A DNA stretch of 64,000 nucleotides, from positions 64,130-128,129 of the forward strand of contig CAZAXH010000008.1 of assembly GCA_964489065.1 (NCBI GenBank). The letters are read 5' to 3'. This DNA comes from an uncultured Planctomycetales bacterium (GTDB taxonomy: Bacteria > Omnitrophota > Gorgyraeia > Zapsychrales > JANLHA01). Positions 3,743-28,680 of the stretch are shown one piece after another (position 1 is the stretch's first letter; each line of letters begins with the position of its first letter). The notes under the pieces were generated by a model. That model saw nothing but the letters and a program-made list of their open reading frames with translations, ran no database searches and had not been told where the DNA came from. A program made the translations under genes and the position numbers.

Positions 3743-4609
3743 ATGAGAACATTTGTAGAGTGTGTCCCGTATTTTCTAAAACAAGCGCTTGAGCATGGCC
3801 GCTTATTCACCGGGGACGAGATGATTCATAAAGAAATTCTGGATGAAGTGGCGCACTTGATCCCGAATTTTTCCTTGGGGTGTACTCCTCCGGAGATGGC
3901 ACGGGAAATGCATAAACTGTTTGGGAAAAAATTCGGAGGGGAAGACCTTTATAAAGAGGTCAAAGAGCAAAGTAACCGAAGAGCTATGGACTTATATCCG
4001 GAACTAAAGAAAAAAGTTTCGCGCTCTCCCGATCCCCTGTTAACCGCCGTCGAGTTGGCCATCGCGGGCAATGTTATTGATTACGCCGTAAAAAATACGC
4101 TCAATATTGAGGACGAAATTCAAAAAATGCTAGACGGGAACTTTGCCGCAGGACGGAAAGGCATTTTTGAATACGAAGAATTCCGGGAGGATTTAGCCGC
4201 GGCCGAAACGGTGCTTTATTTAGCGGATAATGCCGGTGAAATCGTTTTTGACAGGGTCCTGTTGGAGGAACTCCCCAGCCGCCAAGAAATTATTTTTGCC
4301 GTGAGGGATAAACCGGTCATTAATGATGCGCTCCTGGATGACGCCCTGTTTTGCGGGATAGATAAAATAGCCCGGGTTATTTCCAGCGGAGTCGACGTAC
4401 CTGGGACGGTTTTAAAATATTGTTCCCAAGAGTTCCTGAAAATTTTTAAGCGGGCCGACCTGATCATCAGTAAAGGACAGGGCAATTATGAAGCCCTGAG
4501 CGATCTTAATGGGAAAATCTATTTTCTTTTTAAAGTCAAGTGCCCAGTCATCGCCCGGCATTCCGGAGCAAGTCTGGGGGATATCGTTTTGAGGCGAGCT
4601 GAAACATGA
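3743..4609 (+). CDS. DUF89 / ARMT1-like damage-control phosphatase family protein
   Basis: It has the motifs LADNAGEIVFD and SKGQGNYEAL, typical of DUF89 metal-dependent phosphatases. Its stop overlaps the next start (ATGA at 4606). Confidence 0.75.
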   Translation: MRTFVECVPYFLKQALEHGRLFTGDEMIHKEILDEVAHLIPNFSLGCTPPEMAREMHKLFGKKFGGEDLYKEVKEQSNRRAMDLYPELKKKVSRSPDPLLTAVELAIAGNVIDYAVKNTLNIEDEIQKMLDGNFAAGRKGIFEYEEFREDLAAAETVLYLADNAGEIVFDRVLLEELPSRQEIIFAVRDKPVINDALLDDALFCGIDKIARVISSGVDVPGTVLKYCSQEFLKIFKRADLIISKGQGNYEALSDLNGKIYFLFKVKCPVIARHSGASLGDIVLRRAET

Positions 4610-7421: not shown

Positions 7422-8406
7422 TACTGAAAAAACAATTATCCCGGTTCCTGATTTGTCCCATGTTGACGCCGGCCCGTTCCCGCCCATGGTGGTTGTCGAA
7501 ATCACGAATGTCTGTAATCTGCAGTGCATCCACTGTCCGTTTTGCTATATATCAAAAGAGCCCGGGTATAAACCGTGCTATATGGCCTGGCCGCTTTATA
7601 AAAAGATCGTGGATGAGGTCGCCGGCCATCCCGGAACCATTTTTCGGCTTTTATGTGACGGAGAGCCCCTCTGCCATCCTCGGTTTATCGATATGGTCCG
7701 CTATGCTAAGACGCGGGGGGTAAGCCCGGTTAATTTTATCACCAACGGGCTTTTAATGGACGGGGCCCGGGCTGCGGCGGTGCTGGAAGCCGGAGTGGAG
7801 GCGGTTGAATTCAGCCTGGATGCGCTTAATAAGAACACATACGAGCGCATCCGGAAAGGTTCGAATTATGAAACGGTCATGCATCATGTCAAAGGCTTTA
7901 TCCGGCTGCGAGACACGTTAAAGGCTCCGACAAAAATTTTTGTCAGCATTATTGACCAGCCTGAAGCCGAAGCCGAGTTGGACGCTTTTGTCGCTTACTG
8001 GACCCCCCGTGTCGACCGGGTTATTACCCGGGCCTACACGTCCATACGGGGCCTTGTTGACCCGGCCAAGATCAAGACCGACCCGCAGATTAAACGCTGG
8101 CCCTGTCCTGACCTTTGGAGGCGTTCGTTTATCAATGTCGACGGTTTTGCCGAATTCTGCGTGGAAGATTGGCACGACCAATCCGTGGTCGGGGATATTA
8201 ACAAAACGACCCTTCAGGCCGTCTGGCAGGGTCCGGATTACGAACGGCTCCGGACCCTGCACAGGCAACGGAGGTTTCAGGAAATTCCTTATTGTGCGGG
8301 CTGTCTGGATTGGCGGGCCCGGGACTGGCATTATGATTATTTTTTGGCTTTGAGAGATACGTTAGGCTCAACGGCAGCCCCAGAGCGGCGGGAGGTGCGG
8401 CCATGA
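7414..8406 (+). CDS. Radical SAM enzyme with an abbreviated SPASM/twitch C-terminal domain
   Basis: The rSAM motif is ITNVCNLQCIHCPF (CxxxCxxC). The C-terminal part has CPDLWRRSFINVDGFAEFC (C-x12-G-x4-C) plus YCAGC. It overlaps both neighbours (7414/7421 and 8403/8406). Confidence 0.85.
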   Translation: MPDTEKTIIPVPDLSHVDAGPFPPMVVVEITNVCNLQCIHCPFCYISKEPGYKPCYMAWPLYKKIVDEVAGHPGTIFRLLCDGEPLCHPRFIDMVRYAKTRGVSPVNFITNGLLMDGARAAAVLEAGVEAVEFSLDALNKNTYERIRKGSNYETVMHHVKGFIRLRDTLKAPTKIFVSIIDQPEAEAELDAFVAYWTPRVDRVITRAYTSIRGLVDPAKIKTDPQIKRWPCPDLWRRSFINVDGFAEFCVEDWHDQSVVGDINKTTLQAVWQGPDYERLRTLHRQRRFQEIPYCAGCLDWRARDWHYDYFLALRDTLGSTAAPERREVRP

Positions 8407-9779
8407 CTTCACGGATTCTCCGAAAAACTCAAAGTGTCTGTCCCCGGTGTCTCGAGACCCTGGACACCTTTATCGTGGAAAAGAACGCAAAAATCGTTAT
8501 GAAAAAAACCTGCCCCCGGCATGGGCTGTTTGAAATCGTATTGTCTTCGACTCCGACTTACTACGCCGAACTCGAGGAGTATTATTTTTCCCTGGCGGAC
8601 ACTCGTTATGAAGTCCCGGAATATGAATTTTGGCCAACCTACCGGTGCAACGCTGACTGCACGATCTGCTGTTTCGGGCGGCAGAATTGGGAGATGGCGG
8701 GGCAGGACGCCTCGACGGGCGAAATTGAAAAACTGGCTAAAAACAGCAAGAAGCGTTTTTTTATTATTTCCGGGGGTGACCCGACCTGCCGGGATGACCT
8801 GGGTGATATTATAAGGACTTTTCGTAAACACGGGAAAGTCGTGACGATCAATACCAACGGCTTAAAATGCGCGGATTTAAACTACCTGAAGAAGTTGAAA
8901 AAGGCGGGCCTGGATCGACTGAATTTGCAATTTGACGGGTTTGACCCCAGATATTATCTGGCTCTGCGGCGTCAGGATTACCTGGACATCAAGCTGAAAG
9001 TTCTTGAAAACCTGCAGACTTTGGGGATTCAGACGACATTCAACGCGACCATCGCCCGGAATCTTAATGAAGGAGCGATCAAGGAATTAATGGATTTCGC
9101 CTCTTCGCACCCTTTTATCAACGGCGTTAATTTCTTTTCCATCTGTTTTCTGGGAGGGGCGAGGGACTGGGAACAAAGTTCATACATCATGCCGGATGAA
9201 ATCATTGACCTGCTCATCAGCCAAATAAGACCCGTTATTTCTAAAAAGAATGTTTTTGTTTTTCAAAAACTTCATCTGGCGGTCAAGTCGTTCCTGGCTC
9301 AGAAATGGTGCTTTTATAATCAGGTCTATCTTTTTGTCCGCAGAAACGGCTCTTTCGAGCCGATTGACCGCTTTCTCAACCTCGCTAAAGCCGAACCTTG
9401 GCTGGACCGTTACAGGGACAACTTCAAGACCAAGCCCTTCTGGGCGCGCGCCTGTCTGGGGATAGCCGTGGGGTGTCTCTTCCTGAAAAAAGAGTCCGTT
9501 ATTATTTTAAAGGAGATCCTTTTGAGGAGCGTGTCCTATTTTCTGAAGACGCGCCATTATCTTCGCGGCAGCCGGTTTTTCTCCGTGAGCTTTTCAACCG
9601 GCTGTGATCCTTATAAATTTGATTTTAACATTGTGAAACATTGCCAGAATGAAATCATCGCGGCCCGGGACCAGGACGGCGTGTTGACTCACTTAGGGAG
9701 CGACGGCCTGTATTGCATGGGGCTGGAGAAACGGTATTTGAGAAATAAACTCCAGAAAGAGGGGATGAGTTCTCGTTGA
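8403..9779 (+). CDS. Radical SAM protein with an N-terminal zinc-ribbon/rubredoxin-like knuckle (subtype A)
   Basis: The N-terminus is SVCPRCL-x19-CPRHG. The rSAM motif is YRCNADCTICCF, followed by SGGDPT. The conserved C-terminal Cys triad is WCFYNQ, CDPYKFD and HCQNEII, and there is a hydrophobic segment FWARACLGIAVGCLFL. Confidence 0.85.
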   Translation: MTSRILRKTQSVCPRCLETLDTFIVEKNAKIVMKKTCPRHGLFEIVLSSTPTYYAELEEYYFSLADTRYEVPEYEFWPTYRCNADCTICCFGRQNWEMAGQDASTGEIEKLAKNSKKRFFIISGGDPTCRDDLGDIIRTFRKHGKVVTINTNGLKCADLNYLKKLKKAGLDRLNLQFDGFDPRYYLALRRQDYLDIKLKVLENLQTLGIQTTFNATIARNLNEGAIKELMDFASSHPFINGVNFFSICFLGGARDWEQSSYIMPDEIIDLLISQIRPVISKKNVFVFQKLHLAVKSFLAQKWCFYNQVYLFVRRNGSFEPIDRFLNLAKAEPWLDRYRDNFKTKPFWARACLGIAVGCLFLKKESVIILKEILLRSVSYFLKTRHYLRGSRFFSVSFSTGCDPYKFDFNIVKHCQNEIIAARDQDGVLTHLGSDGLYCMGLEKRYLRNKLQKEGMSSR

Positions 9780-9780
9780 T

Positions 9781-11052
9781 ATGATGAAAGCCTACCCCCG
9801 ACATTCCGTTGACATTACCTGGCGCGATTACAAGCGCATGGTTTCGTTTTTCTTCACATCCCCGGCCCGGAGGAAAGAATTCCTTCCGGAATTCGAACAA
9901 CGCTTTGCGGAATATACCGGCACCCGCTTCGCCCTGTCCGTGCCGTCCGCCCGGGTGGGGCTTTATGCGATCCTGCAGTATTTTAATTTCCCTAAAGGGG
10001 CCGAAGTTATCATCACCCCGTTCACGCACCAGAGTATTTTTACGGTCCTGAAGACGTTCCGGCTTAAGCCGGTTTTCGTCGATATCGATGAAAAGACGCA
10101 CAATATCGACCCGCACCTGGTCAGGAAATCGGTTTCGGAGAAAACCCGTCTGCTGATTTTAACTCATATGTGGGGGCAGCCCTGCGACATGGCCGCGTTC
10201 ACCGCCTTGAAAAAAGAGTACGATCTGAAAATTATTGAAGATTGCGCCATGGCCGCCGGCGCGACTTACCAGGGGCGGAAAGTGGGGAGTTTCGTCGATG
10301 CCAGCATATTCAGCTTCGGGAAAGCTAAGGCCATTTGCGCTTTCGGCGGCGGGATGCTGTGCTGCCATGACGCCTCCATGAAGGATTTTATCTCCGGCCT
10401 GATCCGGGATTTTAAGCCCTCCCGGAGCCTGCCGCTGGCGGTTTCCGTCATTAATTCCGTGATCGCCAATATCCTGACCCGGCCCCGCTTTTTTTTCTTC
10501 TCCCTTTATCCGGTGATGCGGCTTTTCAACCTGCGGGATCCCTACAATCCGGTTGAACATAAAAAAGACTCCGAAGTCATCCTGGAGCAGATGCCGGAAG
10601 AATGGAAAGTCAAAATGTCGCCGTTTCAGGCCGCCCTGGGGCTGGAACAGCTCCGGAGCCTGGACGCCCGTAACCAGGCCCGGGCCCGTAACGCGCAGCT
10701 TTTGAACTTTTTGTTGGAGGGGACGCCGGGGATCAGTGTGCCCCGGCCGCAACCCGGAGGTAATCATATTTATCTTTACTACGCGGTTCATATACAGAAC
10801 GCCGCTTCTCTGGACGCCCTTAGGTTGAGCTTGCTGAAGCGTTCGGTCGACACGCAATTAAATGAGTTGACGACTCCCCGGCAGCTGCGTGTTTTCGGGG
10901 CGGACAGCCGGACGGTCCCTGTTTTTGAAACCATATCCGCGAATATCCTTGTCATCCCCAACGGGATTTATTTAAATGACCGGGATATCCGGCTTGTGGC
11001 GGAGGCGTTAAAACAGAGCCTGAGGTCCCTTCCGGGGAAGGGGGATGCATGA
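9781..11052 (+). CDS. DegT-like PLP aminotransferase-fold protein (long subtype with a hydrophobic insert)
   Basis: It has a DegT-like layout (ALSVPSARVGLYAIL, IEDCAMAAGATYQGRKVG, FSFGKAKAICAFGGG). A hydrophobic insertion (LPLAVSVINSVIANILTRPRFFFFSLYPVMRLF) follows the lysine motif. Confidence 0.75.
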   Translation: MMKAYPRHSVDITWRDYKRMVSFFFTSPARRKEFLPEFEQRFAEYTGTRFALSVPSARVGLYAILQYFNFPKGAEVIITPFTHQSIFTVLKTFRLKPVFVDIDEKTHNIDPHLVRKSVSEKTRLLILTHMWGQPCDMAAFTALKKEYDLKIIEDCAMAAGATYQGRKVGSFVDASIFSFGKAKAICAFGGGMLCCHDASMKDFISGLIRDFKPSRSLPLAVSVINSVIANILTRPRFFFFSLYPVMRLFNLRDPYNPVEHKKDSEVILEQMPEEWKVKMSPFQAALGLEQLRSLDARNQARARNAQLLNFLLEGTPGISVPRPQPGGNHIYLYYAVHIQNAASLDALRLSLLKRSVDTQLNELTTPRQLRVFGADSRTVPVFETISANILVIPNGIYLNDRDIRLVAEALKQSLRSLPGKGDA

Positions 11053-12431
11053 AAACGGCCCGGCCATCCCGCTCGATATTACGGACAACGGAAAGCGTCT
11101 GCCCGAAATGTTCCGCGCCCCTGCCCGCCAGTATTGTCGCGGATGAAAAAGGCGTGTTTATGGAGAAACGCTGCCCGCAGCATGGAGATTTTCGCGTGCG
11201 CCTGTCCGAAACCCCGGCCTTGTACGCCGAACTGGACGGGTTTTACTGTTCCCTGATGGGGCGGGCGCAACCTTGTTTTGATTATGAAATCTGGCCCACC
11301 CTGCGGTGCAATATGAATTGCGCGATATGTTTTTTCGGCTGTCCGCGGGAATCTTCCCGGGTTTTTGAGCCGACGCTCAACGCCATCGAACAGTTCGTCA
11401 GCCGGGACCCGCACCCGTTTTACTGCCTCTCCGGAGCGGAAGCGACTGTCCGGGATGATTTGCCGGATATCATCCGTATTTTAAAAAAGCACCGGAAAGT
11501 CGTGACGTTGAACACTAACGGAATGCGTTTCGAGGATGAATCTTATCTGTTAAAACTGAAGAACGCCGGGCTGGACCGGGTTATTTTGCAATGCGATGGT
11601 TTTGATCCCCGTGTTTCCCTGAAGATGAGGGGAGAGGATGCTGTCCCCCAACGGCAGCGTGTCTTGGCCCTCTTGGAAAAGCATCATATGCCGACCGCGC
11701 TCAGTTCCACGATCGCCCGGGGCCTCAACGAACATACGGTTTCGGAATTGCTGGATTACGCGCTGGCGCATCCTTTCATCAACGGGATCGCGTTTCTGTC
11801 CATCGCCTTTGACGGCGGGGCCCGGAACTGGAGCCAGGAGCGCTACATGATGCCGGATGAAGTGATCGACGTTGTCTGCCGTGTCCCCGGCTATAACGTA
11901 AAAAAAGAAAACGTGCACAGATTTCAAAAGCTGCATTTCGCCGTCAAGGCGTTCTTGAAGCAGCGCGCGTGTTTATATAATCAGCTTTATGTCCTGGTGC
12001 GCCGGCGGGGTTCCTTTGAGCCTATTGACGCTTTCATGAATCTCGCTAAAGCCGAGCCCTGGCTGGACCGTTACCGGCACGCTTACGCGGGGAAGAAACA
12101 CGGCCTGGCCGCTCTTTATCTGGGGCTGGCTTTGCTATGCCTGTGCTGCCATCGCCGGATTTTAGTCCTGTTCCGGGACCTTCTCGGCTCGGGGGTGTCT
12201 TATTTCTTCCGGACGTCACGATATCTAAGAACAGGCCGACTGCTTGCTTTAAGTTTTACGACCAGCTGCGACCCGTATAAGCTCGACAAGACAATCCTCC
12301 AGAATTGTCAGAATGAAATTATGGCCGCGGATCAAACACCGGACTCTTTACGCCCTATCGGAAGGGAAGGCGCCTATTTCGTGAACCTGGAAAAACATTA
12401 CGCTGAATCTCAACCCCGGGGGGAACCATGA
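11049..12431 (+). CDS. Radical SAM protein with an N-terminal zinc-ribbon knuckle (subtype A)
   Basis: It has SVCPKCS-x19-CPQHG, LRCNMNCAICFF, KAEPWLDRYR, CDPYKLD and NCQNEIM, plus the hydrophobic segment LAALYLGLALLCLCC. ATGA overlaps occur at both ends. Confidence 0.85.
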   Translation: MKTARPSRSILRTTESVCPKCSAPLPASIVADEKGVFMEKRCPQHGDFRVRLSETPALYAELDGFYCSLMGRAQPCFDYEIWPTLRCNMNCAICFFGCPRESSRVFEPTLNAIEQFVSRDPHPFYCLSGAEATVRDDLPDIIRILKKHRKVVTLNTNGMRFEDESYLLKLKNAGLDRVILQCDGFDPRVSLKMRGEDAVPQRQRVLALLEKHHMPTALSSTIARGLNEHTVSELLDYALAHPFINGIAFLSIAFDGGARNWSQERYMMPDEVIDVVCRVPGYNVKKENVHRFQKLHFAVKAFLKQRACLYNQLYVLVRRRGSFEPIDAFMNLAKAEPWLDRYRHAYAGKKHGLAALYLGLALLCLCCHRRILVLFRDLLGSGVSYFFRTSRYLRTGRLLALSFTTSCDPYKLDKTILQNCQNEIMAADQTPDSLRPIGREGAYFVNLEKHYAESQPRGEP

Positions 12432-15184
12432 AACCTGACACGATCATTCGCGCGACGCAAAGCGTTTGCCCTGTATGCCTGGAAGCCGTGCCCGCGACGG
12501 TGCTTGAGAAAGACGGCCGGGTTTACCTGACTAAGACCTGCCCCCGGCACGGGGCCTCCGAAGTCCTTCTGTCTGAGACCGCGGGTCTTTACAAAGAACT
12601 GGAAGGCTTTTTTTCCGCCGTTATGAACCCGTCTTACCGCATCCGCGAATATGAAATCTGGGTGACAATGCGCTGCAACACGTCTTGCACCATCTGTCAT
12701 CTCGGAGACAGCAACAGGATCGACATCCCGGACCCGAGCCTGGAAAAAATCGAGGAGTTTATCCTCCGGCATGACCAGCCGGCTTATATCCTTTCTGGGG
12801 GAGAGCCCACCTGCCGGGAAGACCTGCCGGATATTGTCCGCCTTTTTAAAAAGCACGGCAAGCATATCAGCCTGCACACGAACGGTCTGGCTTTAGGGAA
12901 CAAAGATTACATCCGTTCCCTGCAGGAAGCGGGGTTGGACCGGATCAATCTTCAATTTGACGGGTTCGCGCCGGACGCGTATAAAATTTTCCGGGGGAAA
13001 AATATCCTGGATAAGAAGCAACTGGCTTTAAAAAACCTGGAAGACCTGCGTCTGCCGACGGATTTGAATATCACGGTTGCCCGGGGTGTCAATGAGCCGG
13101 CCGTCATGGACAGCGTCCGGTTTGCCGTTAAACATCCTTTCATCTCTTCCGTTAACTTCTTCACGATCTGCTACCTGGGAGAAACGGCCCGATGGCCTTT
13201 AAAATATTTCCTTATGCCGGATACGATCGGAGACATCCTGGAAAAAGAAACAGGCGGCCGGATTTCCAAGCGCGGCATCATCCTTTTTCAGAAACTGCAC
13301 CTGGCCGTTAAATCCCTGCGTTCGGAGCGTTATTGCCTTTACAGCCAGATTTTTGTCCTGTTCCGAAAACGGGACGGGACGTATGACCCCATTGACCGCT
13401 ATCTTAACCTGGAACGGACGGACAGGCTTCTGAAACTTTATCAAAAAATGGCTCCCGGGCATCCTGTCCTCGCCAAAATAATTTTAATTTTAGGCCTGCC
13501 GTTTTTTATGATGCGCTGGTCCACGCTGGTGATCCTGAAAGAAATCTTGCGGACCGGATTTTCTTTTATGATCAACGAGGATTACGCTTTAAAAACCAGC
13601 CCGTTCCTTTATTTGAATTTTAATACGAGCTGTGATCCTTATAAAATCGATTACGGGTTCGTGCAGGATTGTCAGGATGAAATCATTTTTTATGACCGTC
13701 AGCAGGAACACTTGGTGAACCAGGGAGTGGACGGATTGCGCGCCATCGAGTTCGAGCGCCGCTACCGTAAGGCCGCCCCCAAGGAGACGATTCGCATTGA
13801 TCGGAAAATGGAAACATCCCAGAGGCATAAGCCTGCCGGCTTGGGCAACCGTGTCATTCGGGAGACAATGAGCGTGTGTCCTGTTTGCCTGGCCCCGCTC
13901 CCGGCCAGGATCCGGGCCGGAGCGGATGGCGTTTATCTGGAAAAGACATGCCCCCGGCACGGGGCCTTTCGCGTTTTTGTTTCGACTCATCCGGATGATT
14001 ATCAGGCCCTGTCCGACACTTATTTTTATTTTATCCCCGGGGCTCTGGAACAACGGGAATATTACGTCTGCGCGAGCACGCGGTGCAACATTTCGTGCCC
14101 GATTTGTTACCTGAATTATTGCCCTGAGCGGCCTCCTCTGACGCCCGAGGATATGAACAGCGCCGTGGGGGATAAACCGCAGGTGGAGCGCTTCACGTTT
14201 TCCCACGGCGAGCCCACGGTCTCTCCGCAACTGCCGGAGATGATCCGGGCTTTAAAGAAAGCCGGGAAATTTGTCAACATTCATACGAACGGCGTGAAAC
14301 TTGCCGATTATGCTTATACTCAATCCCTGAAACAGGCGGGGCTGGATCACGTGAGCCTCCAGTTTGACGGTTTTCGTGATGAAATTTATGAGACCCTGAG
14401 AGGCGGGAAGCTCTTGGAGGCCAAAACGCGCGCTTTGGATAATCTTAAGGCGCTGGAAATCCCCGTGACATTAAACGTGACGATCGCCGGGGGCGTTAAT
14501 GAAGACGAGTGGGGCAAAGTTTTTGATTACGTTGTCCGGAATGATTTTATTAAAGACGTGAGTTATATCACTTACTGCCATTACTCCCCTCAGGGGGATG
14601 CCGAGGGCCGGTCCATGATGCCGGACGACCTGGTGATACGCCTCGTGGAGCATTCTCAAGGGACGATTGAGAGGGAGGATGTGGTCTGTTTTCAGAAATT
14701 GTTTTACGCCTATTTAAGCGCCTTCCGCAAGAAAAAATGCTTTAACTATTATCATTATTGCGTTGTGCGGACATCCGGCGGATACCGTGGGATTGAGCGT
14801 TATCTGGATGTGCGGAAGATCGCCGGGAAGATTGACGCGTGCCGGGAGAGAGGACAAACGATGACGAAAACGTTGTTGCTGAAAATATTGTTAACCTCTC
14901 TGCGATGGGATAGTGTGGCGTTGATTCCTTACGGATTATTTTTGCTGTCGCGCGGGGGGTATCCCCCAAGCCCCGGGAAACTTTTAGTCGTGACGTTGGC
15001 CAGTATCTGCGACCCGTATAAATATGACGCAACGGTCGCCTTAAATTGCGGGCAGGGCATTATTACTCAAACCATGCAACATGAGAGTTACGGGACATAT
15101 ATTATCGAGGAGATGAAGCGTTCGCCGCGTCCCGACGCAGCTCGTGTCCTGCCTGACGCGTTTCCTCAAGGGGGTTCGGTATAA
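12428..15184 (+). CDS. Tandem fusion of two zinc-ribbon radical SAM modules (subtype A followed by subtype B), 918 aa
   Basis: Module 1 has SVCPVCL..CPRHG, MRCNTSCTICHL, CDPYKIDYGFVQDCQDEII. A linker (RYRKAAPKETIRIDRKMETSQRHKPAGLGNRVIRET) follows. Module 2 has SVCPVCL..CPRHG, TRCNISCPICYL, ICDPYKYDATVALNCGQGII. The reading frame is continuous in the supplied sequence. Confidence 0.85.
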   Translation: MKPDTIIRATQSVCPVCLEAVPATVLEKDGRVYLTKTCPRHGASEVLLSETAGLYKELEGFFSAVMNPSYRIREYEIWVTMRCNTSCTICHLGDSNRIDIPDPSLEKIEEFILRHDQPAYILSGGEPTCREDLPDIVRLFKKHGKHISLHTNGLALGNKDYIRSLQEAGLDRINLQFDGFAPDAYKIFRGKNILDKKQLALKNLEDLRLPTDLNITVARGVNEPAVMDSVRFAVKHPFISSVNFFTICYLGETARWPLKYFLMPDTIGDILEKETGGRISKRGIILFQKLHLAVKSLRSERYCLYSQIFVLFRKRDGTYDPIDRYLNLERTDRLLKLYQKMAPGHPVLAKIILILGLPFFMMRWSTLVILKEILRTGFSFMINEDYALKTSPFLYLNFNTSCDPYKIDYGFVQDCQDEIIFYDRQQEHLVNQGVDGLRAIEFERRYRKAAPKETIRIDRKMETSQRHKPAGLGNRVIRETMSVCPVCLAPLPARIRAGADGVYLEKTCPRHGAFRVFVSTHPDDYQALSDTYFYFIPGALEQREYYVCASTRCNISCPICYLNYCPERPPLTPEDMNSAVGDKPQVERFTFSHGEPTVSPQLPEMIRALKKAGKFVNIHTNGVKLADYAYTQSLKQAGLDHVSLQFDGFRDEIYETLRGGKLLEAKTRALDNLKALEIPVTLNVTIAGGVNEDEWGKVFDYVVRNDFIKDVSYITYCHYSPQGDAEGRSMMPDDLVIRLVEHSQGTIEREDVVCFQKLFYAYLSAFRKKKCFNYYHYCVVRTSGGYRGIERYLDVRKIAGKIDACRERGQTMTKTLLLKILLTSLRWDSVALIPYGLFLLSRGGYPPSPGKLLVVTLASICDPYKYDATVALNCGQGIITQTMQHESYGTYIIEEMKRSPRPDAARVLPDAFPQGGSV

Positions 15185-15188
15185 AATT

Positions 15189-16751
15189 ATGAAGATCGCC
15201 TTTATTAATGATTCCTGTGAACGGCTGGGTGTTGAATATATTTCAGCCGTGCTTAAACAGCATGGGCACACCGTCAAATTGTTCGCCGATCCGCAGCTCT
15301 TTGATGACGAAAATTTTACAATCGCGCCTCTGGCCAGGTTTTTTGACCGGCAGGAAGACCTGCTGGCCCAAATTCAGGCGTTCCAGCCGGATCTGATCGG
15401 GTTCTCGGTCGTGACGGACTTTTATCAGTGGGCCTGCCGCCTCGCCAGGCGTATCAAAGCGGTGATGGATGTCCCGGTGCTTTTCGGAGGGATTCACGCG
15501 ACATCGGTTCCCGAAAAGGTCCTGCAGCAGGATTGCGTGGATATGGTCTGCCGGGGGGAAGGGGAGTTCGCCCTTTTGGACCTCGCCGACAGCATGGAGA
15601 AGGGCCTCCGGGATTACACGATCCCCAACATTTGGTTTAAAAAAGACGGTGCGATCATCAGGAATGATGCGCGTCCCCTGATCGAGGACCTGGATGCGCT
15701 GCCGTTCGCGGATAAAGACCTTTTTTATGAGGCCAGCCCCCATTTTTCCCGTTGCTATTTCCTGATGACCAACCGCGGCTGCGCTTACGCCTGCAGTTAT
15801 TGCTGTAATTCATTCCTGAAAAAATTTTATCATGCGAAAGGCCGGTACCTGCGTTTCCGCAGCGCCGGAAACGTGATCCGGGAGTTGACCCTGGCCAAAC
15901 AGAAATACGGCATTAAAATGGTCCGTATCCACGATGATGACTTCCTCACGCACGACGTGCCCTGGTTCGAGGAGTTCGCGGAAGAATACTCCCGGCATAT
16001 ACAGGCCCCGTTCGCATGCTTCACGCACCCCAACAGCGTGACGGAAACCAAAGCCCGCCTGCTGAAGAAAGCAGGGTGCCACGATATCGAAGTGGGGGTC
16101 CAGTCCATCTCCTCGGACACGCGTTACCGGATTCTTAACCGCCGCGTTTCGGATGAGCAATTGGTCCGCGCTCTGCAGATATTAAAAGACGCGGGCATCA
16201 AGGTGATCACGGATAATATCCTGGGGCTTCCTCACCAGGGGCGGGAGGAGCTTCTGGATCTCATTAAATTTTATAATAAAAACAGGATCATGAAGATTTA
16301 CTGTTTCGGCTTCCGGCATTATCCGGCCACGGATATCGTCGAATATTCCAGGGACGAGAAACTGCTGAGCGCACAGGATGTCGAGAACCTGGAGAACGGG
16401 ATCAATGTCAAGACCTTCATTCAGAGCGGGGATAATTTGAGCCGTGAGGACCGGCAACTGCAGACATTTTTTGCGTTTCTGCTCTACCTGCCGGAGACGG
16501 TCAATAATTACATCCTTGAGAAAAAGCTGTACCGTTATTTTATCCCGCTCCCGTATTATGTCCTGGTTATCTTTTCCAATTGGCTGCGCATCCCGTACCG
16601 GTACAACTGGGCGCTGCATATTACCGTGTGCCGGTACCGGGTTTATGCTTATAAAACGATAAAGAAAAAGTTTACCTCGGGTATCAGGGCGTTGCTTAAA
16701 AAGTTCCGCCCTTCGGCCTTTAACACGGCGCGGGGGACGCCTGTCCGGTGA
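15189..16751 (+). CDS. B12-binding (class B) radical SAM enzyme, array paralog 1
   Basis: The ATG at 15189 gives MKIAFINDSCERLGVEYISAVLKQHGH, matching the paralog N-termini. The track ORF starting at 15144 overlaps the upstream gene. It has GGIHATSVPE and CRGEGE (B12-binding domain) and NRGCAYACSYC (CxxxCxxC). Confidence 0.9.
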   Translation: MKIAFINDSCERLGVEYISAVLKQHGHTVKLFADPQLFDDENFTIAPLARFFDRQEDLLAQIQAFQPDLIGFSVVTDFYQWACRLARRIKAVMDVPVLFGGIHATSVPEKVLQQDCVDMVCRGEGEFALLDLADSMEKGLRDYTIPNIWFKKDGAIIRNDARPLIEDLDALPFADKDLFYEASPHFSRCYFLMTNRGCAYACSYCCNSFLKKFYHAKGRYLRFRSAGNVIRELTLAKQKYGIKMVRIHDDDFLTHDVPWFEEFAEEYSRHIQAPFACFTHPNSVTETKARLLKKAGCHDIEVGVQSISSDTRYRILNRRVSDEQLVRALQILKDAGIKVITDNILGLPHQGREELLDLIKFYNKNRIMKIYCFGFRHYPATDIVEYSRDEKLLSAQDVENLENGINVKTFIQSGDNLSREDRQLQTFFAFLLYLPETVNNYILEKKLYRYFIPLPYYVLVIFSNWLRIPYRYNWALHITVCRYRVYAYKTIKKKFTSGIRALLKKFRPSAFNTARGTPVR

Positions 16752-16761
16752 AACAAGATAA

Positions 16762-18114
16762 ATGTCTATGAAAACTTATTTCATAAGCGCGTCGACATTC
16801 TGCATGGAACGGATGCTGGACTGCCAGCAGGTTTCCGATTATCTCAAGTTGAACGGCTGGCGTCCGGTGACGCGGGTTCGGCAGGCCGGGCTGGTCATCA
16901 TAAGCACCTGCTCGTTCGGGCGCGAAGAGGACGCGAGCTCCCTGGATTATATCCGTTATTTTCTGCGGAAGAAATCGCCCCGGGCCCGTTTCCTGATTAT
17001 GGGGTGCCTTCCGGTGATCAACCCCGACTTATTATCTTCTTATCAGGATATTCCCGTGCTCACACCGACCACTTTATCCCGGATCGAAACCGTGGCCCCT
17101 CCGGAGAGGACCCGGTTCGCGGATGTCCCGGAACCCAATAAAATTTTGGCGACAGAAGTCACGCACAGTGTTTTTCTGAAAAAAGCGTTAAGTTTCCGTT
17201 CCGCGTTCAGGCAGGGCCTCCGGTGTTTTAAGCCTGATGTAGCGACGTTGCGGCGGGGGCTGTCCTTCCTGAAAGCCGCGGTGCGTTATGTCCCGGTTAT
17301 GAAGGCGCACATTAACCCGTTCTTATCCTGTAACCGGAACGGATTTTATTATTTGAGATTATCCAAGGGCTGCCTGGGGAACTGCAGTTACTGCGCTAAA
17401 AGACATTCGACAGGGACCTTGCAGAGCAAATCCACAACCTCTATCCTCGATGAATTCCGCGCCGGGCTCAGGGCCGGGGAAAAGCAGTTTTATTTATTGA
17501 CGGAAGACGTCGGCTGTTACGGGGCCGACCGGCACACAGATATCGTAGCCTTGTTGAAAAATCTTTTTGAAGCCGGGGAGAGGCATGATTTCCGGATTGT
17601 CCTGTCCAATTTCAATGCCCGGTGGTTCGTGCGGTATTATGAGGACCTGGAGCCGGTCTTGATCCGGAATCAGAACAAAATTTTGTATCTGCAAATACCG
17701 ATCCAGTCAGGCAGCACCCGCATCCTGGAATTCATGAACCGGCATTACACCATTGAAGACGTGGAATCCCGGCTCCTGACTTTAAGAAAGAACGCCCCGG
17801 CGGTCGCCTTCACGACCGATATCATCGCCGGATTCCCGGGGGAAACGGATGAGGATTTTGAACTCACCAAGAAGTTTTTGTCGAAAATACGTTTTCAGCA
17901 CGTTGATATTTTCGCTTACGAAAAACGCCCCGGCACTAAAGCGGGAACGCTTCCCGGGGACGTCCCCCCGGAGATCATCGAAGCCCGTGTCCTGCAGTTG
18001 GCCCGGCTTCAGAACAGCTATCACCGGGGCCCCATGCTTGCTAAAAAAGTGCTGGATGTTATCCGGGAAAACCTGCAGCGCTACCGGAATAAAGCCGTGA
18101 CCCGTACGCCATGA
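16762..18114 (+). CDS. MiaB/RimO-like methylthiotransferase-type radical SAM enzyme lacking a TRAM domain
   Basis: The N-terminal UPF0004-like domain has three spaced Cys (STFCMERMLDC.., IISTCSF, IMGCLP). The rSAM motif is SKGCLGNCSYCAKRH, and GFPGETDEDF is present. The C-terminus ends without a recognisable TRAM barrel. Confidence 0.75.
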   Translation: MSMKTYFISASTFCMERMLDCQQVSDYLKLNGWRPVTRVRQAGLVIISTCSFGREEDASSLDYIRYFLRKKSPRARFLIMGCLPVINPDLLSSYQDIPVLTPTTLSRIETVAPPERTRFADVPEPNKILATEVTHSVFLKKALSFRSAFRQGLRCFKPDVATLRRGLSFLKAAVRYVPVMKAHINPFLSCNRNGFYYLRLSKGCLGNCSYCAKRHSTGTLQSKSTTSILDEFRAGLRAGEKQFYLLTEDVGCYGADRHTDIVALLKNLFEAGERHDFRIVLSNFNARWFVRYYEDLEPVLIRNQNKILYLQIPIQSGSTRILEFMNRHYTIEDVESRLLTLRKNAPAVAFTTDIIAGFPGETDEDFELTKKFLSKIRFQHVDIFAYEKRPGTKAGTLPGDVPPEIIEARVLQLARLQNSYHRGPMLAKKVLDVIRENLQRYRNKAVTRTP

Positions 18115-19625
18115 CAAAACAAGGCCTGAGAATTGCTTTTGTGAATGATTCCTGCGAGCATTTGGGGGTTGAATATATCTCCGCCGTGCTGAAATCCGCA
18201 GGGCATGATACCCGTCTATTCGTTGACCCGCTTTTGTTTGATGATGAATTTATCACCGTTAAGGGGCTCAGCCGCCGCTTTGATTACACTAAGAAGATTA
18301 TCCGGGACCTCAGGGCTTATCAGCCGGATCTGGTCAGCCTGTCGGTGGTCTCAAGCTTCTATCCCTGGGCCGGCCGGATGGCCCGGGCTATAAAGGCGGA
18401 GATGGACGTCCCCGTTATCATGGGCGGTATTCATCCGACATCCGTTCCCGAAAGTGTCATCCAGAACGACGCCGTGGATATGGTCTGCCTGGGGGAAGGG
18501 GAATACCCCCTGCTGGAACTTGCCGACAGTATGGCCCGGGGAAGTATCGACGACACCGTAAAAAACATCTGGTTTAAAAAGAACGGGAAGATCCTGCGCA
18601 ACCCTTTGCGGCCGCTTATCGACGATTTAGATGCCCTCCCGTTTCCCGATAAAGACCTTTATTATTCCGTCAGCCCGCATTTTTCAAAAAGTTATTATAT
18701 CGCGACCAGCAGAGGCTGCCCCAACGCCTGCAGTTATTGCTGTAATTCTTACCTGCATTCTTTGTACAAGGGCCTGGGCGCGCCGCGGCGGTCGCGCAGC
18801 GTCCGGAATGTCATTGAAGAATTAATGTGGGCCCAAAACCGTTACCGGATCGATCCGGTTTTCTTCCTGGATGACTGTTTCGGGACCGATTTGGGATGGT
18901 TAAAAAAATTCGCGACGGAGTACCGAGAAAAAGTCGGCGTTAAGTTTTACTGCATGATGTTCCCCGCACCCCAGATGGAAGAGGCGGTTGAATATCTCGC
19001 GCAGGCCGGCTGCGGGGAAATCGAGATCGGCGTCCAGTCCTGGGATGAAGATGTCAGGCGCCGGATATTCAACCGGCGCGTTTCGAACGACACGATGATC
19101 CGGACGATGAAATTGATCAGGAAGGCGGGGATCAATCTCGTGACAGGCGATATCCTCGGTTATCCCGGGCAGAAAGAGGAGCATATTTTAAAAACCGCGG
19201 AGATTTACACAGACATAAAACCCAGCCGGACGTACGCTTTTATCCTGAAATATTTTCCCAAAACGGAGATCACGGAACAGGCGCTGCAGAACGGATGTCT
19301 GAGTCCGGCGGATCACGAAAAAATATTGGACGGCCATTACGGCAAATACTTATCGAAAGACGGCTCCATGACAGAGAGGGATGTCATGCAATATCTGCTT
19401 CTATTTTTGCTGGTGCGTATTTTACCGGTCTCTTGGGCCAAGACAGTAATCCGGAAAAAATTTTATAAGCGTTTCCCGGTTTTGTTCACGCCGGCCGTGA
19501 TTTCAATCCTGAATAATTTTTCGACATCCACCTTTGAATCGCAGGTCAACCGGAAAAGCGCCCTGGCACGGTACACTTTTTTCATTAAACGATTGTTTTC
19601 TAAATCCAAAGCAGGTGCGCGATGA
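18111..19625 (+). CDS. B12-binding (class B) radical SAM enzyme, array paralog 2
   Basis: It has LRIAFVNDSCEHLGVEYISAVLKSAGH, GGIHPTSVPE, CLGEGE and SRGCPNACSYC. The ATGA overlap with the upstream gene is at 18111/18114. Confidence 0.9.
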   Translation: MTKQGLRIAFVNDSCEHLGVEYISAVLKSAGHDTRLFVDPLLFDDEFITVKGLSRRFDYTKKIIRDLRAYQPDLVSLSVVSSFYPWAGRMARAIKAEMDVPVIMGGIHPTSVPESVIQNDAVDMVCLGEGEYPLLELADSMARGSIDDTVKNIWFKKNGKILRNPLRPLIDDLDALPFPDKDLYYSVSPHFSKSYYIATSRGCPNACSYCCNSYLHSLYKGLGAPRRSRSVRNVIEELMWAQNRYRIDPVFFLDDCFGTDLGWLKKFATEYREKVGVKFYCMMFPAPQMEEAVEYLAQAGCGEIEIGVQSWDEDVRRRIFNRRVSNDTMIRTMKLIRKAGINLVTGDILGYPGQKEEHILKTAEIYTDIKPSRTYAFILKYFPKTEITEQALQNGCLSPADHEKILDGHYGKYLSKDGSMTERDVMQYLLLFLLVRILPVSWAKTVIRKKFYKRFPVLFTPAVISILNNFSTSTFESQVNRKSALARYTFFIKRLFSKSKAGAR

Positions 19626-21136
19626 AAATCGCTTTTGTCAACGATTCATCCCAGCAGCTGGGTATACAATATATTTCGGCCGTCCTTAAACAGCACGGCC
19701 ATGACGTGAAGCTGTTCATGGACCCCCAGTTATTCGATGACGATGTGATCCGGGTCCCCCGATTGAGCCGGTGGCTTGATTCCAAGAAAGAGCTTGTCCG
19801 GCGTCTGAAAGCCTATCAGCCCGACTTGGTCGGGATCTCCGTGGTGACGGATTTTTACCAGTGGGCCCGCCGGATCGCCACGATGATCAAGGAAGAAATG
19901 GATGTCCCGATTATCGCCGGCGGAATCCACCCGACATCCGTTCCCGAGAGAGTGCTGAAAAACGATTGTTTTGACATGGTGTGTCTGGGAGAAGGGGAGT
20001 TTGCTTTGTCGGAACTGGCCGACAATATGCAGAAGGGAACGCCTGACTACACGATCCGTAATATCTGGTTCAAACGGGACGGCCAAATCATAAAAAATGA
20101 ACTCCGGCCGCTTATCGATGACCTGGACGACCTGCCCTTTCCGGATACGGACTTGTATTATTCCGCCAGTCCTCATTTTAAAAGGACCGGCCTGTACGTT
20201 ACCATGACTTCTCGCGGCTGTCCGAACGCCTGCACGTACTGCTGTTTTTCTTACCTGCAGGGGCTTTACAAAGGGAAAGGGAAAAGGATCCGGCAGCGCA
20301 GCGTCGGCAATGTCATGAGTGAATTGCGGACCAACAAGGAAAAATACAACATCAAGTTCGTCGCGTTTATGGACAATTGTTTCGGGTATGATTCGAAATG
20401 GTTGCGGGAATTTGCGCCCGTTTATCAGGCGGAGATCGGGATTAAATTCTGGTGCATCATGCATCCCAAGGATGTCACGGAAGAAACCCTGAAGCATTTG
20501 AAGCGGGCCGGGTGCCACACGATTGACATGGGGGTGCAGTCGTGGAACGAGCGCATCCGCAAGGAGGTCCTGCACCGGGATGTCGGGAATGACACGATGG
20601 CCCGCGCGATCCTCCTGGTCAAGAATGCGGGGATCGAAATCATGACCGACAGCATTTTCGACCTTCCCGGGCAAACGGAAGACGACATCCTGGAAAGTGC
20701 CCGCCGTTATGCGGAAATCCGGCCCAAGCGGATATATTTTTACATGCTCCGGCATTACCCCAACACCCTGATTACCCGGATGGCGAAGGAGGATAATCTT
20801 CTGACCTCATCCCGGTATGAAGAAGTGATGGACGGGGTGAACGTCACGTCTTTCACCATCGGAGGCGACAAGGTCAATAAAGACATGATCCGGTTTCAGA
20901 TCCTGTTTTATCTGATCGATTTGATCCCCAAACGGATGAGCTTGTTTATCATCCGCAGGAGACTGCACCGGTATTTCCCTCTCATGTTCGGCCCCGCCAT
21001 GATCGTGATCCTGCGTAATTTGCTGGCCTTTGACATGAACGCCCGGCTTCAGCGCGCCTGGGCCTTTAACCGTTACGCGCATTTTATCTGGGAGAAAATC
21101 CGTCCCGTCCGAAAATGCCGGGGACATCAGCCATGA
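19622..21136 (+). CDS. B12-binding (class B) radical SAM enzyme, array paralog 3
   Basis: It has MKIAFVNDSSQQLGIQYISAVLKQHGH, GGIHPTSVPE, CLGEGE and SRGCPNACTYC. The ATGA overlap is at 19622/19625. Confidence 0.9.
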   Translation: MKIAFVNDSSQQLGIQYISAVLKQHGHDVKLFMDPQLFDDDVIRVPRLSRWLDSKKELVRRLKAYQPDLVGISVVTDFYQWARRIATMIKEEMDVPIIAGGIHPTSVPERVLKNDCFDMVCLGEGEFALSELADNMQKGTPDYTIRNIWFKRDGQIIKNELRPLIDDLDDLPFPDTDLYYSASPHFKRTGLYVTMTSRGCPNACTYCCFSYLQGLYKGKGKRIRQRSVGNVMSELRTNKEKYNIKFVAFMDNCFGYDSKWLREFAPVYQAEIGIKFWCIMHPKDVTEETLKHLKRAGCHTIDMGVQSWNERIRKEVLHRDVGNDTMARAILLVKNAGIEIMTDSIFDLPGQTEDDILESARRYAEIRPKRIYFYMLRHYPNTLITRMAKEDNLLTSSRYEEVMDGVNVTSFTIGGDKVNKDMIRFQILFYLIDLIPKRMSLFIIRRRLHRYFPLMFGPAMIVILRNLLAFDMNARLQRAWAFNRYAHFIWEKIRPVRKCRGHQP

Positions 21137-22653
21137 AGATCGCGTTTGTCAATGATTGCGTCGAGAGGCTGGGGGTTGAATATATTTCGGCGCTCCTGAA
21201 GGGGCAGGGGCATCAGGTGAAACTTTTTGTCGATCCCCAGCTTTTTAATAACGTGTATGTGCAGATCAACCGCCTGAGCCGGTATTTTGATTACACGGAA
21301 AGAATTATTCGCGGTCTCATGGAATATCAGCCGGACCTGATCGGATTCTCCGTGGACACGGAATCCTATCAATGGGCTTCCCGTCTGGCGCGGCGCATTA
21401 AGGAGCGCATGGAAACTCCCATTATTTTCGGCGGGATCCATCCGACATCCGTGCCGGAGCGGGTTATTTTAAATGAAGCCGTGGATATCCTTTGCGTCGG
21501 GGAGGGGGAACACCCCATGCTGGAACTGGTCAACAGCATGGCCCGGGGCGGCGTGGACACGGCAATAAAGAATTTGTGGTTTAAAACGAACGGCAGGATT
21601 ATCACAAATCCCTTAAGGCCTCTTTTGGCCGACCTGGACAGACTCCCGGTCGCCGATCACGGCCTTTTTTATGACACTTACCCCTATTTCCGCAAAGGGT
21701 ACAGCACGATCGCTTCGCGCGGCTGCCCTTACGCCTGCAGCTACTGCGGGCACGCGTATCTGCGGCAATTGTATCAAAACAACGGGGCCTATTTCCGTCA
21801 CCGCAGTGTCGAAAATCTGCTGGATGAATTAGCGCTGCGCCTGACGCAGTATAAAATCGATATCATCACTTTCTTTGACGACAATTTCGGTTTTGAACCG
21901 GAGTGGCTGGAGAAATTTTCCGTCCGGTACGCCAGGGATATCAGAAGACCGTTTACCGTGACCGCCCGCCCGGAAATGATTTCCCGTGATTATGTCCGCC
22001 TCTTGAAACAGGCCGGATGCTGCTCCGTGACCCTGGGCGTTCAAACCTGGGATGATGCCGTTCGAAAAGAGTGGTTTAACCGGGATGTGAACCCGGAGGT
22101 GATGCTGAAGGCCATGCGGCTCGTCAAGGAAGCGGGCCTGGAATTGATCTGTGATAACATATTCGGGGTTCCCGTTGAAAACGATGAGGGGTATATGCGG
22201 GCGTTGCTGCCCTATGCCGATATTAAACCCGACCGGATCCTGTTTAATCAGCTGAAATATTTCCCGCGCGTGCCGATCACGGAAAAGGCCCGTGAAGGAA
22301 ATTTCATATCGGAGCAGCGGTATGACGCCATTATGGACGGCCGGGACCAGAAAGGAATTTTCCTGGGGCCGTCTGCCGCGAGCCGTGGGGACCGTAGACA
22401 GCTGATCCGGAAAAAACTTTTTTTATATTCATTGGATTGGTTGCCAAAAACATGGGCGCGGTTTATTATTAATAAGCGTCTTTACCGTTATTTCCCGACT
22501 TTCATTAACCCGGCGGTTCTTCCGGTTTTGCGGACGTTTTTTTCGTCCGACACGGACACGCGATATTTTAAACGCCGGACTTTATCACGCTACTGGTATC
22601 ATTTGACCCCACGCCTGCGGGGTCGGAGGAGACACGATGAGCCCACAAACTGA
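21133..22653 (+). CDS. B12-binding (class B) radical SAM enzyme, array paralog 4
   Basis: The ATG at 21133 (ATGA overlap with the stop at 21136) gives MKIAFVNDCVERLGVEYISALLKGQGH. It has GGIHPTSVPE, CVGEGE and SRGCPYACSYC. The track start at 21115 is probably too early. Confidence 0.9.
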   Translation: MKIAFVNDCVERLGVEYISALLKGQGHQVKLFVDPQLFNNVYVQINRLSRYFDYTERIIRGLMEYQPDLIGFSVDTESYQWASRLARRIKERMETPIIFGGIHPTSVPERVILNEAVDILCVGEGEHPMLELVNSMARGGVDTAIKNLWFKTNGRIITNPLRPLLADLDRLPVADHGLFYDTYPYFRKGYSTIASRGCPYACSYCGHAYLRQLYQNNGAYFRHRSVENLLDELALRLTQYKIDIITFFDDNFGFEPEWLEKFSVRYARDIRRPFTVTARPEMISRDYVRLLKQAGCCSVTLGVQTWDDAVRKEWFNRDVNPEVMLKAMRLVKEAGLELICDNIFGVPVENDEGYMRALLPYADIKPDRILFNQLKYFPRVPITEKAREGNFISEQRYDAIMDGRDQKGIFLGPSAASRGDRRQLIRKKLFLYSLDWLPKTWARFIINKRLYRYFPTFINPAVLPVLRTFFSSDTDTRYFKRRTLSRYWYHLTPRLRGRRRHDEPTN

Positions 22654-23980
22654 AACCCTTGTCCGCGAAACCACCAGCCTTTGCCCGGTGTGCCAAAAGC
22701 AGATTAAGGCGGCCGTTGTGGAGTCCGGGGACGGGATTTTTCTTTCCAAAAACTGCGATGTGCACGGGCCGTTTAAACTCAGGGTTTCGCGCCACGCTTG
22801 GTATTATAAAAACCTGACGGAGTATTATTTCCGCGTCATGCCGGCTGATATGCCCCAGAAACGTTTTTATATTTATTTAAGCAACCGCTGCAACCTTGAT
22901 TGCCCGATTTGCCTGCTGGAACCGAACCAGGATAAAGCGGCCGATGTCTCCCTGGACCAGTTTAAAAAGCTGATCCGCGATAACTCCGGTTTCCGTTATT
23001 ACCTTTACGGCGCGGAACCGACCCTGCGCGATGATCTCCCGGAATGGATCGCCCTTCTGAAAAAACACGGCAACCTGGTTAATATTCACACCAACGGCAT
23101 TAAACTTGATGATATCGCCTATCTCCGGTTCTTAAGAGACGCCGGGCTTGATTATGTGAGCCTGCAGTTTGACGGCTTCGACGATCAGGTCTATCTGGCG
23201 CTCCGGAACCGCACATTGCTGGATTCGAAGCTGAAAGCCCTGGAGAATCTTGAAAAGCTGGATATTCCGACGGGGCTCAATGTCACTATCGCCAAGGGCC
23301 TGAATGAGAAGGAAATAAACCCTATTATAGACTACGCTGTCGGTAAACCCTTTATCCGGGACGTGAGTTTCGCTTCGGTGTCTTTCCTGGGGAACGCGGA
23401 AAGGAATTTTTCTTCCGCGGACCTGCTGATGCCGGATGACGTGGTGGACCTGGTTGAAAACGCCACAAAAGGCAAAGTGAACCGCCGCAGTCTCTTCTTA
23501 TTTCAGAAATTGTATTATGCCGTGTTGTCTATTTTTAACATCCGCCGGTGCTATAATTTTCATCAGCTCGCTTTGGTCCGGGACGGACGGGGGGGATACC
23601 GATCCTTTGACGCGATCTATGACCTGGCGGGGTTTGAAAAAAAGATGGACCGGTTCAGCCATCTGGCGCCCCGGAATAAAACCCTGGCGGCGGGATATTT
23701 CTTCCTGCAGTTTATCATGAACATGCTGTCGGGCGACGTGAAGGAAAAGGTCCAGATCCTGCCGCTCAACATGCTCCTGCCGGGGCAGAAACGGAACGTG
23801 AAAATCCCGTCCAAGATCCTGCTCGTCAGCTTCGGGACGGTCTGCGATAAATATAAATACGATGCGGGGATTTCCCGGTACTGCGGGCAGGGGTTTGTTT
23901 TCAACCGGGATGGAAGCCTGGCGCTATCGGATTCCGTTTCGGACATGACGCTTTTAAAAAAGGGTGAGGCCTGCGGTTGA
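22637..23980 (+). CDS. Radical SAM protein with an N-terminal zinc-ribbon knuckle (subtype B)
   Basis: It has SLCPVCQ-x19-CDVHG, NRCNLDCPICLL, FQKLYYAVLSIFNIRRCYNF, VCDKYKYDAGISRYCGQGFV. Its closest relative in the window is the C-terminal module of 12428..15184. Confidence 0.85.
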   Translation: MSPQTETLVRETTSLCPVCQKQIKAAVVESGDGIFLSKNCDVHGPFKLRVSRHAWYYKNLTEYYFRVMPADMPQKRFYIYLSNRCNLDCPICLLEPNQDKAADVSLDQFKKLIRDNSGFRYYLYGAEPTLRDDLPEWIALLKKHGNLVNIHTNGIKLDDIAYLRFLRDAGLDYVSLQFDGFDDQVYLALRNRTLLDSKLKALENLEKLDIPTGLNVTIAKGLNEKEINPIIDYAVGKPFIRDVSFASVSFLGNAERNFSSADLLMPDDVVDLVENATKGKVNRRSLFLFQKLYYAVLSIFNIRRCYNFHQLALVRDGRGGYRSFDAIYDLAGFEKKMDRFSHLAPRNKTLAAGYFFLQFIMNMLSGDVKEKVQILPLNMLLPGQKRNVKIPSKILLVSFGTVCDKYKYDAGISRYCGQGFVFNRDGSLALSDSVSDMTLLKKGEACG

Positions 23981-28640: not shown

Positions 28641-28680
28641 ACTCTGTTTTGTGCCTTTGTTAAGAGAGGAAAAAGGTTTT

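Follow-up and report, generated by a model that had tools for sequence, protein, structure and literature searches.

The best solved relative of the proteins considered here is the tetraether lipid synthase GDGT-MAS, or Tes (MJ0619; PDB 7TOL; NCBIfam NF045702), which carries a rubredoxin-like CX2C...CX2H iron site, an N-terminal auxiliary [4Fe-4S] cluster, a radical S-adenosylmethionine (SAM) cluster and a C-terminal auxiliary cluster with a labile Met and a conserved Tyr, and which was purified as a monomer (PMC9433317). Homologues of Tes are known in bacteria and are uncharacterised (PMC8941075; PMC11868695). Here we analysed a stretch of 64,000 nucleotides (nt) from an uncultured Planctomycetales bacterium that GTDB places in the Omnitrophota (assembly GCA_964489065.1, contig CAZAXH010000008.1, positions 64,130 to 128,129 of the forward strand), referred to below as the window. 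At 12428-15184 it holds an open reading frame (ORF) of 918 amino acids (aa) with two Tes-like radical-SAM modules, which is probably a newly born gene fusion of two head-to-tail Tes-like genes. The double Tes-like arrangement is new as an architecture, yet it is a variant of one base in one population.

Two Tes-like modules in one reading frame

The initial annotation had described the 918-aa ORF as containing two complete zinc-ribbon radical-SAM modules, and we recovered the ORF, its Pfam domains and all of the motifs as described. Pfam recognized two Zn_ribbon_HMPTM (PF23545) and two Radical_SAM (PF04055) stretches; with a PF04055 score of 146 bits against a cut-off of 29.5 (E=1.3e-42), the two stretches and their Cys triads identify the ORF as a radical-SAM protein. 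For the same protein on a Logan contig, the precomputed annotation gives the identical four domains in the identical order. We cut the modules at M461 (ATG 13808-13810, in frame). The ORF, its modules and the stand-alone paralogues in the window are as follows.

12428..15184, + strand: fused ORF with two Tes-like radical-SAM modules, 918 aa, uninterrupted; identical in the Logan assembly of SRR15237810
12428..13807, + strand: module N, aa 1-460; orthologue of a separate 467-aa gene in relatives
12467..12550, + strand: module N metal knuckle CX2C-X20-CX2H, C14/C17/C38/H41; PF23545 match at aa 7-49, aligned to the GDGT-MAS rubredoxin motif
12674..12697, + strand: module N radical-SAM CX3CX2C, C83/C87/C90 (PF04055)
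13334..13672, + strand: module N, three invariant Cys (C303/C402/C415), candidate C-terminal auxiliary [4Fe-4S] ligands; invariant alignment columns, homology to the 7TOL C-terminal domain
13808..15184, + strand: module C, aa 461-918; all related clusters have its orthologue as a separate gene of 437-462 aa
13877..13960, + strand: module C metal knuckle, C484/C487/C508/H511 (PF23545)
14084..14107, + strand: module C radical-SAM CX3CX2C, C553/C557/C560 (PF04055)
14738..15049, + strand: module C, three invariant Cys (C771/C861/C874); invariant alignment columns
8403..9779, + strand: stand-alone paralogue A1, 458 aa
11049..12431, + strand: stand-alone paralogue A2, 460 aa; its stop overlaps the start of the fused ORF (ATGA)
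22637..23980, + strand: stand-alone paralogue B, 447 aa

Both modules of the fused ORF retain all conserved metal ligands, and each has a strongly hydrophobic (helix) segment. Over 431 aa, modules N and C share 32% identity (E=2e-67), a resemblance beyond chance. The nearest stand-alone genes to module N are those at 8403 (42% identity) and 11049 (39%), while module C is closest to the gene at 22637 (38%). A neighbour-joining tree of 40 modules resolved five orthogroups, with a superclade of A1, A2 and N set against a superclade of C and B. Module C, which had been assigned to the same subtype as 22637, thus falls with B into one superclade but in a conserved orthogroup of its own.

The two modules are separate, overlapping genes in relatives

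When the whole ORF was used in a word-indexed search for homologues, two distant proteins were the only ones returned, the close relatives lying in the query's own cluster; an 87-aa cluster member, P0154, stops short of the junction. By looking up the proteins that flank the fused ORF, we located a sister contig from another sample (Logan contig SRR21822500_10155) that is 99.92% identical to window positions 7687-20353 (12,667 nt). The two sequences differ by six substitutions and one indel, an extra A in the sister at 13804/13805, and the sister's A2 and B12a proteins (B12a being a B12-binding radical-SAM enzyme of the same cluster) are identical to those of the window. In the sister contig the modules are separate genes with a 35-nt overlap, encoding P0153 (467 aa, ending ...IDRKNGNIPEA) and P0155 (462 aa). 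P0153 differs from module N by one substitution over 460 aa, and its final 7 aa stand in place of the read-through. When the A is re-inserted into the window junction, exactly the 467-aa and 462-aa proteins of the sister result. Four of the seven differences between window and sister lie within ~800 nt (13130-13927) around the junction, including K235Q in module N, and this grouping may mark a recombination tract or a separate haplotype.

The extra junction base was also found in five further assemblies, representing three further lineages (L005; L008 and L024; L009 and L023). L005 (AMWB02126324.1) is a 904-nt NCBI contig in which this base puts the two modules in different frames. The same contig has one surplus T in a T-run at ~665-672 that disrupts the radical-SAM core of its C-type gene; the record probably contains a pseudogene here, or an error of assembly or sequencing. 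This T-run insertion led us to suspect that the extra junction base in L005 was likewise a homopolymer error, a possibility that was rejected because the base is also present in L008, L009, L023, L024 and the sister contig. The Omnitrophota contigs from metagenome-assembled genomes were retrieved by locus searches with a six-sequence alignment. The N and C proteins of L008 are 89.8% and 84.4% identical in aa to those of the window, and those of L009 are 87% and 79.6% identical; L024 and L023 are independent metagenome assemblies that match L008 and L009, respectively, exactly at the junction. Traced end to end, L008 and L009 both have a 467-aa N gene ending in TAA and a 462-aa C gene that starts from a TTG 8 nt after GGAGAC, again with a 35-nt overlap, and the same TTG, GGAGAC and TAA are present at the junctions of L005, L023 and L024. 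Since the genes are split in every relative, the fusion is best read as a recent, strain-specific accident and not as a conserved design.

Anatomy of the junction

The elements of the junction, in window coordinates, are as follows.

13760..13867, + strand: 'linker', aa 445-480 (36 aa, 11 K/R), consisting of the N-gene tail and the C-gene leader
13783..13788, + strand: GGAGAC, Shine-Dalgarno-like motif 8 nt upstream of the ancestral TTG, conserved in all relatives
13797..13799, + strand: TTG at which the ancestral C gene started, no longer in frame with module C; sister protein P0155 begins MIGKMETSQ
13805..13808, + strand: AAAA run, site of the 1-nt deletion; AAAAA in the 99.92% sister contig, L005 and L008/L024, GAAAA in L009/L023
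13808..13810, + strand: ATG (M461), first module C residue in the fusion and possible weak internal start; codon 5 in the split sister contig
13828..13830, + strand: ancestral TAA stop of the N gene, present but out of frame

In this Omnitrophota lineage, then, an N-type gene lies upstream of a C-type gene and overlaps it by 35 nt, with the C gene initiated at TTG after a GGAGAC that lies within the last N codons. In the window, one A is lost from the run of five inside the overlap, so that the N frame reads straight into the C frame, leaving both the old TTG start and the TAA stop out of frame and turning the N tail and the C leader into a 36-aa basic tether. Ribosomes that start at 12428 on the fused allele would have to make N and C at 1:1, so that the fusion would alter only the stoichiometry and the tethering of two steps. 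The proposal that the fusion arose through loss of a stop/start junction between adjacent genes was therefore correct in that two adjacent genes have been joined. The stop itself was not lost; a 1-nt deletion merged the frames, and the TAA is kept out of frame.

The basic stretch had been described as a linker of about 35 aa added between the modules. Aligned with the split genes, it consists of the upstream gene's usual C-terminal tail, RYRKAAPKETIRIDRK, followed by the downstream gene's usual N-terminal leader, METSQRHKPAGLGNRVIRET, with 16 aa from the tail and 20 from the leader. The stand-alone neighbours do not end exactly where this stretch begins, as had also been stated, but continue for 9-13 aa past the conserved R/H-Y of LEKRY/LEKHY. 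An independent start at M461 is possible and poorly supported, with GGAGAC lying 19 nt upstream. A C-to-T change that creates ATG-461 was considered as compensation for the lost TTG start and was rejected, since the split sister allele has this ATG as well. The 26 nt at 13783-13808, GGAGACGATTCGCATTGATCGGAAAA, are almost invariant across lineages that are otherwise 78-86% identical, a pattern that fits a joint constraint from two overlapping frames and a putative ribosome-binding site.

Alternative explanations

Several points weigh against reading the ORF as a genuine fusion of Tes-like genes. The deletion lies in a homopolymer, a classic site of consensus errors; the fused state comes from one sample only, whose two assemblies probably share reads; the A4 at the junction is read from assembled sequence alone, as the fused protein is from its gene; and the substrate and chemistry of the modules rest on ~30% identity to GDGT-MAS, with all family scores far under the equivalog cut-offs. 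A sequencing or consensus error, with the organism truly carrying AAAAA and two genes like its sister, would account for the homopolymer site, for the extra base in all other assemblies, even the near-identical sister, and for the exact restoration of both sister proteins by a single A, but we regard it as unlikely. The Logan assembly of SRR15237810 has the fused junction with 100% identity, and NCBI as well as Logan is listed as a source of the 918-aa protein (longest contig 138.7 kb). The window runs ~12 kb beyond the end of the Logan contig, and the genes in this part, which include an AcrB-type RND transporter and an outer-membrane efflux protein at 53963-58551 on the separate contig SRR15237810_16169, belong to a second contig that Logan built from this run. 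The window is thus taken from another, longer assembly, and both assemblies yielded the same A4, albeit probably from the same reads. In addition, no second indel separates the window from its sister over 12.7 kb, no gene is broken within the 64-kb window, and in the 9.2 kb compared with L008 the sole 1-nt indel other than that at the junction is intergenic, making the junction indel the only unbalanced coding indel in these close comparisons. The 12,667 nt shared with the sister contain 116 homopolymer runs of >=5, while only 111 nt (0.9%) are intergenic or overlapping; the single indel falls in this small fraction, where a frameshift truncates nothing, which fits a mutation filtered by selection and not a random error, for which the chance of landing in the overlap is ~1%. 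The indel also sits among linked single-nucleotide polymorphisms, and the clustering of differences around the junction suggests a distinct linked haplotype. We conclude that the A4 junction is most likely a real allele. That the relatives make a fused protein by programmed +1 frameshifting on the A-run, which the window merely hard-wires, is barely credible: CGG AAA AAx in L005, L008 and the sister would let tRNA-Lys re-pair in the +1 frame, but L009/L023 carry GGGAAAAC, without a five-A run and with the layout unchanged, and GGAGAC 8 nt before the conserved TTG is an ordinary coupled start. No stimulatory element turned up, although none was searched for. Programmed frameshifting was rejected because L009 lacks the A5 run.

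A real fusion could still have been favoured by selection. The initial annotation took the covalent pair as a sign that the two subtypes form a heterodimer or act consecutively, and predicted that the stand-alone A-type copies pair with 22637. In this form, with N and C/B types as an obligate heterodimer or channelling pair, the idea draws on the invariable co-clustering of all the paralogues, on the reproducible fusion of a B12-radical-SAM to a Zn-ribbon radical-SAM protein (P0001) on six contigs of a related cluster, and on the precedent of FbiC, which joins CofG and CofH (PMC8859854). We nevertheless judge it highly improbable. A survey of fused versus split homologous clusters, as had been suggested, found the fusion in the window's population only; the 99.92% sister has split genes, as do all 13 other related loci. 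A HMMER scan of 1.84 billion representatives gave no double-module protein among the top 150 matches, all of which are single-module proteins of ~440-460 aa; a fused relative would have ranked first. Adjacency of N and C is confined to the window's own clade: among the 13 related loci, the N gene is absent from L010, L011 and L013, whereas L007 and L016 have an aminotransferase gene between N and C and L022 has N downstream of C, so that the N orthogroup is missing or not next to C in most related clusters. A-type genes and B/C-type genes number 3:2 in the window and 1:2 in L010, L011 and L013, which gives no support to a pairing of stand-alone A copies with 22637 and does not match a 1:1 complex, and GDGT-MAS behaves as a monomer on purification (PMC9433317). 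A fusion this young and this local does not point to selection for a heterodimer, nor is it evidence that a complex has been selected for. The paralogues are always found in one conserved cluster and therefore very probably act in one pathway. It is also conceivable, if rather doubtful, that the fusion was tolerated because the N and C enzymes already lie side by side in a multi-enzyme radical-SAM assembly, with five Tes-like modules and at least eight B12-radical-SAM enzymes, whose product would be an Omnitrophota envelope lipid or lipid-linked aminosugar with extensive C-C linking or methylation; in that case nature would have run a tethering experiment on this assembly in the form of the fused allele. 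With the recent, one-base fusion as the preferred explanation, the fused allele is very young, and it is probably neutral or mildly deleterious.

Relationship of the modules to Tes and TrsS

GDGT-MAS matched the window modules with E=7e-44 when the ORF was used alone and with E=8.5e-77 when a 22-sequence family profile was used, and the alignment spans 7TOL residues 23-479. Like GDGT-MAS, each module has an N-terminal CX2C-X20-CX2H knuckle, a radical-SAM core formed by a partial TIM barrel with the CX3CX2C motif, and a C-terminal domain that bears Cys, in that order. Unlike GDGT-MAS, the modules are without the N-terminal auxiliary [4Fe-4S] insert that lies between knuckle and core (CX3CX2C + His; C73, C77 and C80 in GDGT-MAS): the corresponding 7TOL segment, NGCPYDCGLCPNHK, is a gap in the query in both the single-sequence and the profile alignments, while P0002, a closer relative of Tes, carries this segment. 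At the C-terminal auxiliary site, each module has three invariant Cys in the homologous region; they align with the 7TOL ligands only approximately, and the Met has no conserved counterpart at its aligned position. Further differences lie in the host, which is bacterial (Omnitrophota), and in the presence of five paralogous modules per cluster beside sugar-aminotransferase and glycosyltransferase genes.

The top NCBIfam models for the modules are TrsS (NF045646, radical SAM (seleno)protein) and Tes (NF045702), both at about one third of their cut-offs. With NF045702, the stand-alone modules score 143-153 bits and the two-module ORF 266 bits against a cut-off of 450. TrsS is the best-scoring curated family for every window module; its cut-off is 490 bits, and the stand-alone modules reach 150-182 bits each and the fused ORF 319, which is too low for membership. 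No published function for TrsS was found in the literature searched. By sequence comparison, the window modules are assigned to the Tes/GDGT-MAS superfamily but fall outside both curated families.

Homology with GDGT-MAS suggests three metal sites in each module: a knuckle with mononuclear Fe/Zn, a [4Fe-4S] cluster that cleaves SAM and, C-terminally, an auxiliary cluster. The module may cleave SAM reductively and direct the 5'-deoxyadenosyl radical at an unactivated carbon of a hydrophobic substrate, probably a lipid or a lipid-linked compound.

A conserved Omnitrophota gene cluster

The fused ORF lies in a conserved Omnitrophota cluster with more than 15 radical-SAM genes, which occupies 6366-50962 of the window and is also found at loci L007-L016 and L022. 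The cluster contains three to five Tes/GDGT-MAS-like Zn-ribbon radical-SAM genes, at least eight genes for B12-binding radical-SAM enzymes, a SPASM radical-SAM gene and a MiaB-like gene, together with three DegT aminotransferases, WbqC, GT2, an LPG-synthase-TM protein, YfhO- and PMT_2-like membrane proteins and a homologue of AsnB (asparagine synthase); in the window it also holds several further radical-SAM proteins. Across 13 loci, a core order of DegT-SPASM-A1-DegT-C-B12a-MiaB-like-B12b-B12c-B12d-B-B12... is conserved, and it is kept in complete as well as draft genomes (for example OY759724.1). Tes couples ether lipid chains tail to tail through C-C bonds; the context of sugar aminotransferases, GT2 and GT-C-like enzymes in the window is unlike that of archaeal lipid loci. 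To judge from their predicted families, the surrounding genes point to the tailoring of an envelope lipid or a lipid-linked aminosugar, and A1, A2, N, C and B may carry out different steps of one pathway with the B12-radical-SAM enzymes, the sugar aminotransferases and the membrane glycosyltransferases.

Upstream of the cluster are genes for a Mrp/NUBPL-type Fe-S carrier ATPase (PF10609; 2864-3691), which would suit the supply of clusters to many radical-SAM enzymes, and for an ARMT1-like damage-control phosphatase (3743-4609). Directly downstream of the fused ORF, a mechanically called ORF at 15144-16751 has a GTG start and overlaps it by 41 nt; gene calls on related contigs start this gene at ATG 15189 (520 aa), 4 nt past the stop of the fused ORF. 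Four proteins of 498-560 aa in or beside the cluster have no Pfam match (28609-30291; 34766-36262 on the minus strand; 46007-47602; 1173-2843), and one of them, of 556 aa, is 96.6% identical in L008.

Comparison with other radical-SAM fusions

Taken together, our results provide a clean case in which overlapping, translationally coupled genes became a fusion gene by a single-base deletion, with both alleles extant at 99.92% identity. By itself the fusion is of little weight, and it warns against inferring function from a singleton fusion. Of greater value is the conserved, uncharacterised cluster with its three to five distant Tes/GDGT-MAS paralogues without the N-terminal auxiliary cluster, which bears on the role of the bacterial Tes homologues.

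Three Zn-ribbon radical-SAM proteins encountered in the HMMER scan, P0042, P0047 and P0087, carry one or two N-terminal hemerythrin (HHE) domains, and P0087 extends into a P-type ATPase, as either a chimera or a real fusion. P0001, an uncharacterised 950-aa metagenomic protein (gene 10001-12853 in L002-L004), resembles the window ORF in joining two radical-SAM enzymes that share a pathway type, and its smaller cluster contains a SPASM radical-SAM gene, a stand-alone Zn-ribbon radical-SAM gene, a B12-radical-SAM gene and GT2. Unlike the window ORF, it joins a B12-binding radical-SAM enzyme to an A-like Zn-ribbon partner, and it occurs on six contigs from several samples; it is therefore a stable architecture. 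Fused enzymes are common in the Omnitrophota, as reports of multi-enzyme giant proteins imply: these are tiled by many distinct enzyme domains, including radical SAM (bioRxiv 10.64898/2026.06.07.730766). Such proteins reach 10-147 kaa (thousand aa), whereas the window fusion joins two genes and its one-base origin is still visible. A precedent for such an architecture is FbiC (FO synthase; CofG + CofH), in which two complete radical-SAM modules of one pathway are likewise found in one polypeptide or in two genes, depending on the organism (PMC8859854). The window ORF shares with FbiC the two complete modules in one polypeptide but not the conservation among relatives, for the FbiC fusion is ancient and conserved across the Actinobacteria, whereas that of the window belongs to one population and is one base away from its split sister.

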